A stretch of DNA of 62,770 bases, filler included, from Malassezia furfur (GCA_052055015.1; 5 parts of 5 records of this genome joined end to end with filler, not necessarily neighbours in it), one strand, 5' to 3'; numbered from the whole stretch's first letter, positions 3-37,870 are shown. Translations and numbers: made by a program. The notes: generated by a model from the sequence alone, not told the origin.

Positions 3-221
3 GAGGCGTGGGCGGCCGCCGCGCGCGCCGCAGCCGGCGCGGCCGACGGCGCACCGGCGCAAGACGCCGCGACCCTGCAGATGCTTGCGGACGTCGATGC
101 GGTGCGCAGCGAGATGAATGCGATCGTCGCTGGTGCATGTCCGCAGTGCACGCTCGCGGTGCAGCAGCTCGCGCAGCCGCTCGTCGACGCCAAGGACGAC
201 GATGCAGCGTGGGCTGTCTAG
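3..221 (+). CDS. VPS18: 3' end of vacuolar sorting protein Vps18/Pep3 (partial)
   Basis: Frame from nt 3 reads ...DAVRSEMNAIVAGACPQCTLAVQQLAQPLVDAKDDDAAWAV*, resembling the Vps18 C-terminus (CxxC followed by a terminal W). Confidence 0.6.
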   Translation, partial: EAWAAAARAAAGAADGAPAQDAATLQMLADVDAVRSEMNAIVAGACPQCTLAVQQLAQPLVDAKDDDAAWAV

Positions 222-337
222 CGCGGACATGGTCCGTGCGCCCCCGTACACGGCGGGCCCCTGTTTCGGGTGCCTAAGCCTTGGAATAGCATGCTAGTAG
301 ACGTGCGCACTACCTAGCCTATACAGACGGATGCAGC

Positions 338-2201
338 TTAGAACGTGTCGGCAATGCCCTTGACGAGCGCCCACACACCCCACGCGCCGGGGTCCGGCAC
401 CTTCTCCGAGGTCTCGCCGACGTACGTGGCACGGCCGAGACGCGCCGTGAGGTCGCGCGTGTGCTCCGCGCCTTGCTTGGCCGCATCGACGGCCGCCTGC
501 AGCGCCTGCTTGGCAGCAGCGCCCTGCTGGCCCTGCTTGTCGAGCGTCTTGGCAAACGCCGAGCGCGTCGACGAGCGTGCGGTCACCGGGACGCGCCGGC
601 GTGTAGTGGCCGAGGTTCTCGAGCGCGACGGCGGTCGCGTGGCCCCAGTGCTTGGTGCCGGCCGCCTCGCTCTTGTCCTTGGTGCTCTCGAGCAGGCCCT
701 GGACGAGACCGGTGAAGAAGAGGGCATAGATCGCGCCCGAGGTGCCGCCCATGTGCGACTCAATCACCTGGCCAATGCCGAGCACCGTCGCGGTCGCGCG
801 GTCAAGCGGGATCTCGTTCTTCTTGAGCGCCTCAAGCACCGCCTCACCACAGCCACGCAGCGTCTCGCCGGCATCGCCGTCACCGACGATCGTGTCGTAC
901 TTGGTGAGCGTCGGCTCGATGTCGATCACCGCCTGGCATGCGTTCGCAACGACCTTGCGCGTGAGCTCCTTGTCGCCATTCACAGGGCCGTTGGACGCCG
1001 CGGCACCCTCAGTAGCGCTGCCGCTCACACCGTGGCCAGACGCCTGCTTCTTCTTGAGCAGCGCCTTGCTCTCCTCCAGCTGCTCGTCCGGCTGCGGCAC
1101 CGACGGCGTGTTGCTCCACCCGTGGCCGACGCCGACCCAGCTCGCGGCGTCCGTGGGCGCATCGAGCAGCGAGAGGAAGTCGGCACCGCACTCCTCCTTG
1201 ATCCGCTTGTGGTTAAAGAGCGAGATGTTGAAGCCGGGCGCGTTGAGCGACGTAATGTACGTGCCCACATACACGCGCACAGGGCGCAGCTGCCACTCCT
1301 TCAGCAGCTTGCGCTCAACATCCGCAGCAATCGCCGACAGCTCAAGGTTGCTCATACCGCCCAAGTTGTTGATCACCAGCACCGGGTCGGAGTCCTTGTC
1401 GAACGGCACAAACGCACGCTCCTTGTCGTTCGGGTCAAGCAGCAGCTTCAGCATGTCCGACAGCAGCTTGTCCGAGTCCGGCTTGTTGTCGATGTGCTGC
1501 ACACCGGGCTCGTTGTGGATACCCATGCCGATCTCGATCGCGTTCGGGCCGAGCGCGCCACGCTCCTCGTCGTCCTTCGAGCGGCCCGGCACGTGGCAGT
1601 GGTCGAGCGACGAGCCGACCGTCACGACGTTGTTCACGACCGCGCGGCCGATCTTGCCGATAGTCTTGGCATCCTTGCCATCCTCGGCAGCGGCGCCGAG
1701 CGCCTTGCAGACGAACGGCGCACCCGTCAGGCCACGGCGGCCCACGAGACCGCCCTTGGTGCGGCCGACCGACACGTCGTCGCCGACAATCACCATCTCG
1801 ACGTGCTTGTCGCCGCCCTCACTGTTGAAGGCCGAGCGCGCCTTCTCCGCGGCCAGACCAAAGTTGAGGCAGTCGCCCGTGTAGTTGTTCACAATCACCA
1901 CCAGGCCCTTGTCCGTCGCCGCCAGGTCGACACCCGAGAGGATCTGCGCAGCCGACGGCGACGCAAAGATGTCTCCGGACACAGCCACGGTCAGCAGGCC
2001 CTTGCCGACGAGGCCCGTGAACGACGGCTCGTGGCCTGCACCACCGCCCGCGATCAGGGCAACCTTCTTCCGATCGTGCTCAACGTCGTACACGACGCGG
2101 TGAGGAGCATAGGTACGCAGCGAAGGGTTCGTCAGCGCAGCGCCAAGCACGGCCTTGTCCACAAGGCCGTTGGCGCTTTCGAAGATATGCTTGGTTGACA
2201 T
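338..2201 (-). CDS. DAK1: Dihydroxyacetone kinase (Dak1+Dak2 domains), with an apparent frameshift near nt 560
   Basis: Motifs GGGAGHEP, FASPS, NYTGDCLNFG, EIGMGIHNEPG, GDGDAG, MGGTSGA and GDRTLVDAL. The C-terminal ARLGRATYV...PDPGA lies in another frame. Confidence 0.93.
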
Positions 2202-27017: not shown

Positions 27018-28015
27018 ATGGTTTCCCGCGATGCGTGGGAGGCGCGCCTCGCGCAGGTCCCGGTCTCGAAAAGGTGTGTATCGGACCATGCCTCGCAGAG
27101 GATGAGTCTTTTTTGAAGTGGGAATCTCTCCGAAACACATTGAGGACACTTTTTTTCTTCATTGCTGATCCCACCGCGCGGCCCAGAACCGTACTAACCG
27201 GCAGGGACCTGGACCGCCTCGTGATGGACTACCTTGTTGTCCAGGGCTACAAGTCGGCGGCAGAGACCTTTGGCGAGGAGACGCTGATCGTGCCAGAGAT
27301 GGACATGGCTGAGATGGACGCACGCATCATCGCACGCGACGCACTCCTCCGTGGCGACGTCGCTGCCGCAACTGAGCTCGTGAACGACTTGAATCCGGAG
27401 GTATGTACCCTACGGCGTCGAAAGGAAGAACATCTTCATGCACCACGCTGAGCAGCTCGCTGCCGTGCGGAACAAAAACCTAATCACCATCTTTCGACTG
27501 ATCGACGCCTCTTCTTTTTGAGCAGGACTTACACCCAGATCCTTGATACGAGCCCGCCGCTCTTCTTCCATCTGCAGCAGCTGCGCATGATTGAGCTGCT
27601 GCGGGCGGGGGATGTCGACGCGGCACTGGCCTATGCGGCCGAACACCTGGCCCCGCTCGGTGAAGAGCACCCGCATCTCCTGCACGAGCTGGAGCAGACC
27701 ATGTCGCTCTTTGTGTTTGATATGCAGGCTCCGCAATCGTCGGTGCCGCCGCATGCGGCGCTGCTGTACAGTCCCGCGTACCGGCAGCAGGTCGCTGACG
27801 AGCTGAACGCGGCCATCCTTGCGTCGCAGAGCTACAATGCCTCGGCAAAGCTCGCGCAGCTCCTGCAAATCCTTTCTTCTGGCGAGCGGCTGCTTGGGCC
27901 ATCAGGGCCGGGCAAGACCGAGTTCCCGCACCTCGACGTCCCGGCGCTCCTCGCGCGTTCCGAGCTTGCCGAGGTGGAGGAATCCATGACCGACGATGTA
28001 CATACTGTAGTTTAG
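27018..28015 (+). CDS. GID8: GID/CTLH complex subunit Gid8 (LisH-CTLH-CRA); introns 27074-27204 and 27401-27538
   Basis: MVSRDAWEARLAQVPVSKR|DLDRLVMDYLVVQGYKSAAETF, VNDLNPE|ILDTSPPLFFHLQQLRMIELLR, ELEQTMSLFVF, VADELNAAIL. Confidence 0.9.
27095..27172 (+). ncRNA. Intronic box C/D snoRNA, SNORD79(Z22)-like
   Basis: Box C AGGATGA 27099-27105; guide GTGGGAATCTC 27118-27128 complementary to conserved LSU rRNA GAGAUUCCCAC; D' CCGA 27130-27133; C' TGAGGA; D CTGA 27165-27168. Confidence 0.75.
27414..27509 (+). ncRNA. Intronic dual-guide box C/D snoRNA, U32/SNORD32-like
   Basis: 8-bp terminal stem GGCGTCGA/TCGACGCC; C-like AGGAAGA; guide CATGCACCAC before D' CTGA (SSU GUGGUGCAUG); guide TCACCATCTTTCG before D CTGA (LSU CGAAAGAUGGUGA). 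Confidence 0.85.
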
Positions 28016-28044: not shown

Positions 28045-29256
28045 ATGTCTGTGCCGCCCGCGCTGAAGGACACGGCCGCGTACGTGCAGCGTGCCGACGA
28101 AGTCGCCAATGTCGACCCGGTGGTGTCGTACTGGTGTACGTGGAATGGCTGATGCAGGCAAATATTACGCAGCTCAGCTAGGGATCGCAAAACCGACCAG
28201 CGATGCCGCATCCAAGACTTATCTGCTCGGCCTCATGGACGACCTCGAAACGGTGCGTCGCTGCAACTGACGCAGACCAAGGCCGCTTTGGGAGACAACG
28301 ATGCCGTAACCAACGATACGGCGGGCTATGCCTACTTGGAGAATTTTGCCCTCAATATATTCCTTGGTGCAGACAATGAGGATCGCGAGGGGCGTGCGAC
28401 CAAGTACGTGACATGCTGACGCCAGGGCAACCGCACGCACGTTTTTGGCGGCCGTCCAGTTCCTCGAACTGCTCAACGTTTTTGGGCCGCTGGATTCCGA
28501 CGTACGTGGGTCAACTCACCCCAGATCCAAGGGAAGATTAAGTACGCCAAGTGGAAGGCCGCCCAAATCTCCAAAGCACTGCGCGAAGGCAAAAAACCCG
28601 CGCCGGGCCCCGCGGTGAGCGAGGAGGAAAGTGTGCTTGCGCAGCTGATCCCGCCGCAGGAAACCGACGCCAGCGGCGCCCATGACGCATCAACAAGGTC
28701 TGCCACGCTGGACGCTGTGTCAACACCAGAGGACGCCAAAGAACCTGCGGCACGTCCTAGCACAGACGCTGTTGTGCCATCGCAAGACGCTGTGTTTGCT
28801 TCGGTGCCTACGGTGCCTAGCGATACTGCGCGCACCGCCGCCGATGCGCCGTCGTTCCCTAGCGCGCCCAGCGTTGATGCCGCCGATACACCTCCCTTTC
28901 CCAGCGTACCCAGCTCCGATGCCGCGCATCAAGCCTCTGCGCCCAGCAGCGAGAGCCGCCTGCCGTCCGTGCCGGACGAGGGCAGCGCACCGAGTGCCCC
29001 CGTGCAAGTCATCGCCGCTACGTCGGCACCCTCGGCACCTCCTACCAAGGCTGTACATACGACGCCCTCCGCACCACCGCCGCCTCCTACGGATACACGT
29101 CTAAGCGTGACGGACATCGCGAAAGTGCAAAAGTTCTCGCGGTGGGCGAGCAGCGCCCTGGATTACGAGGATGTGGAGACGGCGCGCGCGCATCTCCGAG
29201 ATGCGCTCCACATTTTGGACAGCGCACGGTCTCCGCCCCACGTGAACCCCACGTGA
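28045..29256 (+). CDS. VTA1: Vta1 (Vps4 cofactor), four 22-23 nt introns
   Basis: YVQRADEVANVDPVVSYW|CKYYAAQLGI, LMDDLE, ADNEDREG, KIKYAKWKAAQISKALREG, C-terminal VSL QKFSRWASSALDYEDVETA. Confidence 0.92.
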
Positions 29257-35731: not shown

Positions 35732-36213
35732 AAAACACGGCGCTACTTTTCAAACCTTCGACGACTATGAAACGCACGACAATATAATTGGGGCGAGCAT
35801 TCTGGCAATGTTTGCATCATGTTTCTGTTTCTTGTTGGCCAAGCCGGACTTGGCCCTTTTTGCTTGAATTGGCGAGCGCGATGCCTTTTTATCTAGACTC
35901 TGTTTTGCGCGCTTGCTCTGTTGCGCTATAGGTTCTGCTGGTTTCGGATCCTATAGACCTTTATCCAGTTTATTTTTTTTTTAACTCCGACGGACTCGAG
36001 CGGGTCGAGTCGCGCGCGCATCGATAGGCCTTTGTGCTTGGCACGCACGCGTGCGCACCGGGCCCCGGGTGGGTTTAGTAAGTGGAGGACCGATAAAGTC
36101 GGTGCGCGTGCAGGGTACGCCGCGGGCCTGGGGCAGGTTCCAAGTGCCCATCGCTACGTTCCTGACGAGCGAGCGACGCCAGTGGGGACTCGGGCCAGAT
36201 TGTGAGCGAGACG

Positions 36214-37870
36214 ATGTCGTCGTTCTCGTGGAAGGGTATCTTTGGCATCAGTGTACCTGATTCGAGCGGCTCGCCGTCGGGGCGCTCCGGCTCGCAGCGG
36301 AAGACCTCGGGCGGTCCGCGGGTCGCGTCGAGTGCGGGCAGCGCCGCGTCGCCGCCGAGCGGATCGGTGGGGGCGGCTGGCGCGGCGCGCCCCAATGCCA
36401 TCCGCACGGACGTGAACGGGACGAGCGCGGGGACAGGTTCGCCGATGCGTTCGAGTGCGGGTGTGTCGTCGTCGCCGAGCACGTTTGGATCGCAGCGCCC
36501 CGATGAGGCCGCGTTGGCCGCGAGTTTCCCCCTGTCCCTCGGGTGGACGGCACCCGAGTGGCGCGAGTGGTCGCGCGACAGCGGGCACCATGTGCACGAC
36601 TCGGATACCAAGACGGCGCTGCTCGGCATTGAAAACGTACGTACACAGCGGGGGGAGAGGCGCGCAGAGGCTAACCGGGCGTGCAGTTTGGGAATACATG
36701 GTAGGTGGCCCCGCTTTGCTCACCCCCAGCTATGCCAACTCGGTGCTGCAGGCACTCTACTTTTGTGCGCCGCTGCGCGAGGCGGTGATGGAAGCCGATG
36801 CCGCGCACGTATCGCCGGTGGTGCGGCGCTCCGATACACTGCATACGGCGCTTGTGCGTCTCTTCCACACGATGGCGCGCGAGGCGTCGCGCATCTCGAT
36901 CGAGGTAGGTTGCGCCGCTGACGCGCAGAGCGGCGATGCCCCGGCCAAGCGCGAGGCAAGTGGCACGCCGGCGATTGTGTCGCGGACGGTCAACACGGAG
37001 GCGATCAAGACGTTCCTTGAGACGCTGATGCGCAACTGCGATCTGTTCGACATGAGCATGCACCACGACGCGCACGAGTTCCTCAACTTCACGCTGAACC
37101 AGGTGGGCGAGGACCTCGAGGCGCTGCACGCGCCGGCGCGGGGGGCGGGCAGTGTCGGCAGTGGCAGTGCGCCGGCCACGCGTGGCGACGACGATACCCA
37201 GCGCACCTACGTGCACGACCTGTTCCAGGGCGTGCTCACGAACGAGACCAAGTGTCTCACGTGTGAGAATGTGTCGTACCGCGACGAGGCCTTCCTCGAC
37301 CTGTCGGTGAACGTGTCGCCGAACACGTCGCTCTCGTCGTGTCTGCGCCAGTTTTCCGAGAGCGAGATGCTGCACGGGCGGAACAAGTTTTTCTGCGACG
37401 CGTGTGCGAGTCTCCAGGAGGCCGAGAAGCGCATGAAGATCCGGCACGCGCCCAACATCCTTGCGCTGCACCTCAAGCGCTTTATCTGGGACGAGCGCGT
37501 CCAGGCGTACGTCAAGCACGCGTGCCGCGTCGTGTTTCCGCTCGACCTCCGCCTGTTCAACATGTCCGACCAGGCAGACAATCCCGACCGTCGCTACGAG
37601 CTGTTCGCCATCGTGATCCACGTTGGCGCCGGCGCCAACCAGGGCCACTACATCTCGATCGTCAAGATCGGGCAGCGCTGGGCGCTCTTTGACGACGAGA
37701 CGGTGACGTTCATCGCCGAGTCGGACATCGCCAAGTACTACGGCGACGCGCCCGAAATCGGCAGCGCCTACGTTCTCTTTTACCGCGCCGTCGAGCTCGA
37801 CGAGCGCGCAGCGCATGCCGCGGCGCAGATCACGCACCACACGCCCGCCGCGTCGGCCGCCGCACCCGCC
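36214..37870 (+). CDS. Ubiquitin-specific protease (Ubp9/Ubp13, USP12/46/CreB-like), 3'-truncated by gap
   Basis: Spliced Cys box GIEN|FGNTC|YANSVLQAL, HHDAHEFLN, NKFFCDAC..QEAEKRMKI, LHLKRF, His box GHYISIVK. Confidence 0.9.

Follow-up and report, generated by a model that had tools for sequence, protein, structure and literature searches.

Intron 2 of a GID8-like gene of Malassezia furfur (GCA_052055015.1) very probably encodes a box C/D small nucleolar RNA (snoRNA) that would guide 2'-O-methylation at two ribosomal RNA (rRNA) sites, one in the RNA of each ribosomal subunit, a reading to which we assign a probability of about 0.86. The gene lies in a stretch of 62,770 nucleotides (nt), filler included, which joins five parts of five records of this genome and is called the window in what follows. 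The RNA would be a new example of a well-known kind, distinguished by an unusual host gene and by an unusual box for protein binding. In this fungus, whose introns are extremely short, it would be a well-supported but unannotated guide for two rRNA sites of universal conservation. An earlier note, made from the sequence alone, had proposed a dual-guide box C/D snoRNA in this intron, and the anatomy, the register with Rfam families, the duplexes on a reference rRNA sequence and the conservation all bear it out. The anatomy is read at exactly the coordinates that had been put forward (27414..27509), and the note's description of an atypical box C and an unusual host also stands: the box is AGGAAGA, without both uridines, and the host is GID8. 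The targets that it had named, a G of the small subunit (SSU) rRNA equivalent to yeast Gm1271 and an A of the large subunit (LSU) rRNA equivalent to yeast Am807, agree with the Rfam register, with the duplexes formed on a reference ribosomal DNA (rDNA) and with published site equivalences.

Anatomy and predicted mechanism

The elements of the snoRNA and of its host gene are listed in Table 1. The terminal stem is made up of eight perfect pairs, is present in both the minimum free energy and the centroid fold, and brings boxes C and D together. A spacer of 7 nt lies between box C and the D' guide. According to the general biology of box C/D small nucleolar ribonucleoproteins, the RNA would be transcribed within the GID8 pre-mRNA and released from the spliced and debranched intron 2, and exonucleases would shorten it as far as the 8-bp terminal stem. 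A kink-turn would be expected to form there between box C (AGGAAGA) and box D (CUGA) and to recruit Snu13, Nop56/Nop58 and fibrillarin. In this kink-turn, A5 of box C (C5 in L045, one of the orthologues described below) would face U2 of box D, and the protruding position 2 would be a purine and not U. The D' element is predicted to pair with GUGGUGCAUG of the SSU, which would place the G opposite its fifth nucleotide, the equivalent of yeast Gm1271 and human Gm1328, in the methyltransferase site. The D element is predicted to pair with CGAAAGAUGGUGA of the LSU, where the middle A would be targeted (yeast Am807; human Am1511, which the Arabidopsis table numbers Am1524). By the same general biology, fibrillarin would catalyse the methylation at both sites.

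Guide elements and rRNA targets

The two guides were compared with a eukaryotic rDNA of 4,680 nt that begins at the SSU 5' end and extends into the LSU (L039); this reference is foreign and is not the rRNA of this species. The best duplex of the D' guide on it falls on the expected SSU site (-19.9 kcal/mol vs -14.6 for the next best) and comprises 10 bp, or 11 if the G-U pair at 27436 is counted. The best duplex of the D guide is located at the expected LSU site, with 13 bp and -22.0 kcal/mol vs -14.1 for the next best, and the margin of each expected site over its runner-up amounts to 5-8 kcal/mol. The fifth nucleotide upstream of box D' is C27443, whose partner is the fourth base (G) of GUGGUGCAUG, and the fifth nucleotide upstream of box D is T27493, whose partner is the second A of CGAAAGAUGGUGA. 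On this foreign eukaryotic rDNA, each guide is therefore an antisense element of at least 10 nt that ends beside box D or D' and has a known methylated nucleotide opposite its fifth position.

The sites were also located in a set of at least 41 rDNA loci (L001-L041), which are eukaryotic contaminants in bacterial or archaeal assemblies and were fetched by a pattern with the SSU target. The complement of the D' guide, GTGGTGCATG, is found in eukaryotic SSU rDNA loci, and that of the D guide, CGAAAGATGGTGA, is exact in five of the seven loci that cover the site. A 5'-end motif of the SSU could be located in 12 loci; the targeted G lies at nt 1266-1278 from this end in eight of them, and at 221, 1245, 1517 and 1560 in the other four, which have SSUs with insertions or an odd structure. 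The targeted LSU A is near nt 822 in L026 and near nt 982 in L010 (LR0R-like anchor). As listed in PMC8583080 and PMC3511168, Gm1275 of Arabidopsis thaliana (Gm1272/1275) corresponds to human Gm1328 and yeast Gm1271 and has AtsnoR21 as its guide, and A. thaliana Am816 corresponds to human Am1524 (Am1511 in the older numbering) and yeast Am807 and has AtU51 as its guide. The presence of eukaryotic SSU rDNA on at least 41 contigs filed as bacterial or archaeal also indicates that contaminant rDNA is common in that collection.

Conservation of the snoRNA and its intron

A metagenome was scanned with a pattern of 30 specified bases (D' guide-N-CTGA, 18-48 nt, D guide-N-CTGA). The two-guide pattern was found at six loci (L042-L047), all six of them snoRNA-like. 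Four (L044, L045, L046 and L047) are the same intron of a GID8 orthologue and provide two distinct sequences; in the 201 nt aligned, L045, L046 and L047 do not differ. The exon junction is kept in L044 and L045, with an upstream exon that ends in ..NPE or ..HPE and a downstream exon that starts with ILDT.., and the orthologous introns measure 138 nt in the window, 141 nt in L044 and 134 nt in L045. BLASTP comparison of exon 3 with these orthologues gave 55% and 51% identity (E values of 2e-43 and 6e-37). At least two distant relatives thus share the predicted snoRNA, the position of its intron and its host gene.

The host exons are 56-62% identical in pairwise DNA comparisons, and the proteins encoded by exons 2 and 3 have 40-49% of their residues in common. 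For the snoRNA body, pairwise identity among the window, L044 and L045 amounts to 79-84%, and three blocks in it are invariant in these orthologues: TTCATGCACCACGCTGAGC, TGCGGA and TAATCACCATCTTTCGACTGATCG. The D' guide and its box form an invariant block of 21 nt, and the D guide, its box and the base of the stem form one of 28 nt. The D' guide is even invariant in five aligned sequences, which include L042 and L043, where it stands in exact register. Since the host exons and protein are more diverged than the invariant guide blocks, the guides are constrained more strongly than the coding sequence that surrounds them.

The stem arms were compared by direct duplex folding because a MAFFT alignment of the five snoRNAs misaligns them. 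They read GGCGTCGA/TCGACGCC in the window, GGCACGA/TCG-T-TGCC in L044 and GGCAGGCGA/TCGCC-A-TGCC in L045; the stems of L042-L045 differ in sequence from that of the window and all pair directly outside boxes C and D. Box C is AGGAAGA in the window, AAGAAGA in L044 and AGGACGA in L045, so that neither GA dinucleotide varies and no U occurs at either of the two positions where it is canonical. A conserved box C that is free of uridine lends itself to exploring which sequences kink-turn recognition tolerates. Taken together, these comparisons demonstrate, at the level of sequence, purifying selection on the guides, the boxes and the pairing of the stem.

The other two loci have different surroundings. 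In L043, with a guanine-plus-cytosine (GC) content of 35%, box C is the canonical AUGAUGA, box C' reads GAUGAG and the stem measures 7 bp; the D' guide is directed at the SSU and the D guide at the LSU. An RNase MRP RNA gene is found at 109-454 (+) of the same locus (93.7 bits, above the gathering threshold), 450 nt upstream of the dual-guide snoRNA at 905-989 (+), which is flanked by GTGAGT and CTAAT..CAG and may be intronic. L042 (46% GC) has its two guides in this order as well, and its snoRNA is situated within a run of weak snoRNA-like matches. This same-strand run (-) covers 293-387, 626-691, 780-866 and 1557-1645 and comprises SNORD33-like (25.5 bits), SNORD110-like (25.6 bits) and snR41-like (25.9 bits) matches, all below the gathering threshold. 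U32 and U33 are linked in mammals, a linkage echoed by the U33-like neighbour in L042.

Comparison with known guides

The predicted guide layout is a 5' half of the snR40/Z221 type followed by a 3' half of the snR39/59 (Z196) type. In a local Rfam scan, both RF00134 (snoZ196/R39/R59) and RF00300 (Z221/R21b) match the locus end to end. The D guide and box D are identical to the RF00134 consensus over AAUCACCAUCUUUCG..CUGA (15 nt and the box) in the same register, and the D' guide and box D' are identical to the RF00300 consensus over UCAUGCACCAC.CUGA, also in the same register. Members of the first group (snR39/snR59, Z196/R39/R59 and U51, RF00134/RF01197) have the D guide in common with the intron 2 snoRNA over these 15 nt and box D and have the same target A, but they are single guides, and the fungal snR59 sits in an RPL7 intron and not in GID8. 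Plant snoR21b/Z221 (RF00300) has the D' guide and CUGA in common with it and targets A. thaliana Gm1272/1275, the equivalent of yeast Gm1271, whereas its D guide is unrelated.

Yeast snR40 (RF01201) directs its D' element at 18S Gm1271 (and Gm562) and its D element at 25S Um898, according to PMC4344503 and PMC5824354. It resembles the intron 2 snoRNA in that D' guides Gm1271 and one RNA serves both subunits, and differs from it at the D guide, which is of the Am807 type here. For the D' guide of the intron 2 snoRNA, the five best duplexes on the reference SSU include no second one comparable to that of snR40 D' at Gm562. Am807 is guided in yeast by snR39 and snR59, the latter located in the RPL7B intron, and PMC8476143 reports that 82% of the fungal species examined there, Ustilaginomycotina with few or short introns among them, carry a guide of the snR59 type in the RPL7 intron. 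Redundant guides for the LSU A are described both in yeast (snR39 and snR59) and in human (U32A and U51) (PMC3511168; PMC8476143; bioRxiv 10.1101/2024.11.18.622494). U32, snR40 and snR39/59 belong to one Rfam clan, CL00054, in the table of PMC3511168.

Human U32A (SNORD32A) is likewise a single intron-encoded box C/D snoRNA that carries both targets (bioRxiv 10.1101/2024.11.18.622494; PMC2653536), its D element being directed at 18S G1328 and its D' element at 28S A1511 (bioRxiv 10.1101/2024.11.18.622494), the reverse of the intron 2 snoRNA, in which D' serves the SSU and D the LSU. Since the guides are in swapped positions, the intron 2 snoRNA would be an analogue of U32A in function, without being collinear with it. 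The host gene of U32A is RPL13A in place of GID8, and its box C does not show the loss of both uridines seen here. The label 'U32-like' of the earlier note is thus appropriate for the pair of targets but not for the order of the guides, and the best clan match is RF00134 rather than RF00133: RF00134 is the listed CL00054 match at the locus, not the U32/U33 family RF00133, and two lower-scoring clan matches are also present. The note's further statement that yeast divides the two targets between snR40 and snR39/59 while human U32A carries both agrees with what is reported in PMC4344503, PMC8476143, bioRxiv 10.1101/2024.11.18.622494 and PMC2653536. In chicken, both functions are found on two separate single guides, as described in PMC2653536. 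The literature search found no paper joining G1271, A807 and snoRNA, and term searches of the Neurospora crassa snoRNA paper gave nothing relevant on snR40, snR59, U32, U51 or the expected site names. The predicted RNA fails strict membership of each known family, be it by thresholds, by its second guide or by its host gene, yet it would work like all of them. The U32A pairing of guides would exist with opposite positions as well, a point of interest for the way in which snoRNAs with two targets come together and break up in evolution.

Evolutionary origin of the two-guide layout

It is quite conceivable, though short of an even chance, that the snR40 orthologue of this lineage had its D guide (directed at 25S Um898 in yeast) replaced by an snR39/59-type element, which would have added a second guide, a redundant one, for the LSU A. 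The RNA agrees with snR40 in its D' guide and in where this guide is placed, redundancy at the LSU A has the yeast and human precedents mentioned above, and the snR59 of the RPL7 intron is widespread in fungi (PMC8476143). Because this snR59-type guide is found in the RPL7 intron of so large a share of fungal species, the LSU A guide studied here may be a secondary acquisition. The presence of the same guide pairing in L042 and L043, whose contexts are very different, speaks against such a replacement.

Tentatively, the intron 2 snoRNA might instead have been retained directly from an ancestral guide with two targets, as the earlier note had proposed, a framing that is only partly supported. 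In yeasts and plants this guide would later have been divided into single lines of the snR40 and snR39/59 types, and in mammals it would have persisted, rearranged, as U32A. An arrangement with the SSU G at D' and the LSU A at D is what would be expected of a common ancestor of snR40 and Z196/R39/R59, and the common clan of U32, snR40 and snR39/59 (CL00054; PMC3511168) is congruent with it. The layout also recurs in three unrelated contexts, namely the clade with the GID8 intron, L043 (35% GC) and L042 (46% GC, in a snoRNA cluster), and this recurrence favors its antiquity. Nevertheless, the guides of human U32A are in the opposite positions, and chicken has two single guides (PMC2653536). Since one vertebrate has two single guides and the other one dual guide, pairings of guides are evidently gained and lost with ease.

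A more far-reaching version of this ancestral scenario, which we consider rather unlikely, would have the D'(SSU G)/D(LSU A) RNA as the undivided ancestor of the snR40 and snR39/59-Z196 lines, surviving in several eukaryotic lineages. The fungal clade would also have evolved a box C without uridine (A-R-G-A-M-G-A), which, together with the G at box C position 2 of the intron 1 snoRNA in all three species, would imply that Snu13 recognises the protruding nucleotide of the kink-turn in a relaxed or altered way, and GID8 would have been kept as a carrier of snoRNAs in two introns. If the ancestral-form reading were true, GID8 would, among ordinary introns of ~20-45 nt, couple a subunit of the glucose-response ubiquitin ligase to rRNA modification.

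Points against a dual guide and alternative readings of the locus

Several observations weigh against a functional dual guide. Box C agrees with RUGAUGA at five of seven positions, with G3A4 and G6A7 kept and both U positions replaced. Box C' (UGCGGA) is degenerate relative to UGAUGA, but is nonetheless invariant across the three orthologues. The z-score of the fold is modest (-1.76). The LSU 13-mer is not universal among the seven loci that cover the site, with one mismatch in L016 and two in L040, and the SSU match in the 41 rDNA loci is there by construction, because the search pattern contained the SSU target. At gathering thresholds, Rfam has no match over the whole window; at E<=1, RF00300 is the only match at this locus (E=0.19). 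In the local scan, RF00134 reaches 30.1 bits vs a gathering score of 55, and RF00300 26.8 bits vs 44. The Rfam comparison that the earlier note had suggested thus recovers two families in register below threshold, but no family at its gathering score. Complements to rDNA are also not rare beside CTGA motifs: when a perfect complement to L039 is required within 0-2 nt of the box, 10 of the 282 CTGA sites of the window (both strands), these two included, have one of at least 10 nt.

The D guide 13-mer is the sole 13-nt match among these 282 sites. A single 10-nt match to rDNA is insignificant by itself; the combination of both guides at the locus is, as judged from the alignments, not due to chance, because both blocks are invariant in the orthologous introns and in register with two Rfam families. 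A further pair of CTGA sites at 36162 and 36257 (window positions 36151-36165 and 36247-36260, +; 95 nt apart) has complements of 11 and 10 nt to the reference rDNA. It was rejected as a chance pair, without Rfam support and at the start of a coding region, and makes a useful negative control. Two further Rfam matches at E<=1 in the whole window are to bacterial small RNAs and were dismissed as implausible.

It could also be supposed that only the D guide is active and that folding, splicing, extra base-pairing or the like accounts for the conservation of the D' element, the C'/D' motif being too degenerate for a second catalytic site. The sequence of C' (UGCGGA in place of UGAUGA) and the short D' duplex of 10-11 bp would agree with this. 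Yet the D' guide and its CUGA make up the 21-nt invariant block in three distant species, the guide is in exact register in L042 and L043 and identical in register to RF00300, and C' itself does not vary across the three orthologues, which together make an inactive D' element improbable. That there is no snoRNA at all, the boxes and complements being fortuitous features of a structured or regulatory intron or the remains of a decayed snoRNA pseudogene, is very improbable in spite of the non-canonical box C, the Rfam scores below threshold and the ease with which 10-nt rDNA complements arise by chance, given a conservation above that of the flanking coding exons, compensatory changes in the stem and the recovery of snoRNA-like loci in six of six cases by a pattern of 30 specified bases.

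The host gene and its introns

The host was identified from its translated exons, with LisH on exon 2 (Pfam, 1.8e-10) and CTLH/CRA on exon 3 (Pfam, 6e-21), and all four PDB sequence matches of the protein are named 'Glucose-induced degradation protein 8 homolog'. The reading frame gives the probable start codon and exon 1.

Table 1 Features of the GID8-like gene and of the snoRNAs predicted in its introns (positions in the window)
Feature	Position	Strand	Remarks
GID8-like host gene (LisH + CTLH/CRA)	27018..28015	+	exons 27018-27073, 27205-27400 and 27539-28015, stop included
Intron 2, 138 nt	27401..27538	+	GTATGT...CTTAC...CAG
Box C/D snoRNA, 96 nt with terminal stem (predicted)	27414..27509	+	inside GID8 intron 2
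Terminal stem, 5' arm GGCGTCGA	27414..27421	+	pairs perfectly with 27502-27509
Box C AGGAAGA, atypical	27423..27429	+	one A after the 5' stem arm; aligned to box C of RF00134 and RF00300
D' guide CATGCACCAC	27437..27446	+	followed by G, then box D'
Box D' CTGA, perfect	27448..27451	+	
Putative box C' TGCGGA	27466..27471	+	assigned by position; short linker after D'
D guide TCACCATCTTTCG	27484..27496	+	followed by A, then box D
Box D CTGA	27498..27501	+	near the 3' end
Terminal stem, 3' arm TCGACGCC	27502..27509	+	directly after box D
Intron 1, 131 nt	27074..27204	+	same GID8 gene; with second box C/D snoRNA
Second box C/D snoRNA, SNORD79/snoR44-like (predicted)	about 27094-27178	+	GID8 intron 1
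Intron 1 snoRNA, box C AGGATGA	27099-27105	+	
Intron 1 snoRNA, D' guide GTGGGAATCTCT	27118-27129	+	adjoins D' CCGA at 27130-27133
Intron 1 snoRNA, box C' TGAGGA	27141-27146	+	
Intron 1 snoRNA, box D CTGA	27165-27168	+	

Of intron 2, 13 nt lie before the snoRNA and 29 nt after it, and this remainder is similar in size to an ordinary local intron. The remark of the earlier note that the other introns are very short is plausible in view of the next gene downstream, but does not hold for the first intron of GID8 with its 131 nt. This neighbouring gene has a 22-nt intron at 28136-28157 (+; GTACGT...CTGAT..CAG), which is required by the reading frame (MSVPPALKDTAAYVQRADEVANVDPVVSYW / C / KYYAAQLGIAK...), and a crude motif survey of the window gives candidate introns with a peak at 21-26 nt. 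Introns this short are already known in fungi, since the mean intron size is 30 bp in the Malassezia genome published in PMC5389616 (Table 2). Both long introns of GID8 carry a snoRNA and the neighbouring intron has 22 nt, which fits the retention of introns for their RNAs in intron-reduced fungi as described in PMC8476143.

The snoRNA of intron 1

The second snoRNA matches Rfam SNORD79 with 25.4 bits, below the gathering score of 47. Its boxes and a guide block of 16 nt are conserved in L044 and L045, whereas its D-side guide is not. U79 and AtsnoR44 are listed in PMC3511168 as guides of human 28S Am3809 and Arabidopsis Am2316, respectively. The complementary site of the intron 1 guide has two mismatches in L040, the one rDNA locus that reaches that region of the LSU. 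Box C of this snoRNA reads AGGATGA, CGGATGA and CGGATGA in the three species, with G instead of U at position 2. Both GID8 snoRNAs have a purine, not U, at position 2 of box C in all three species, and a purine at this position may be a habit of the kink-turns of this clade.

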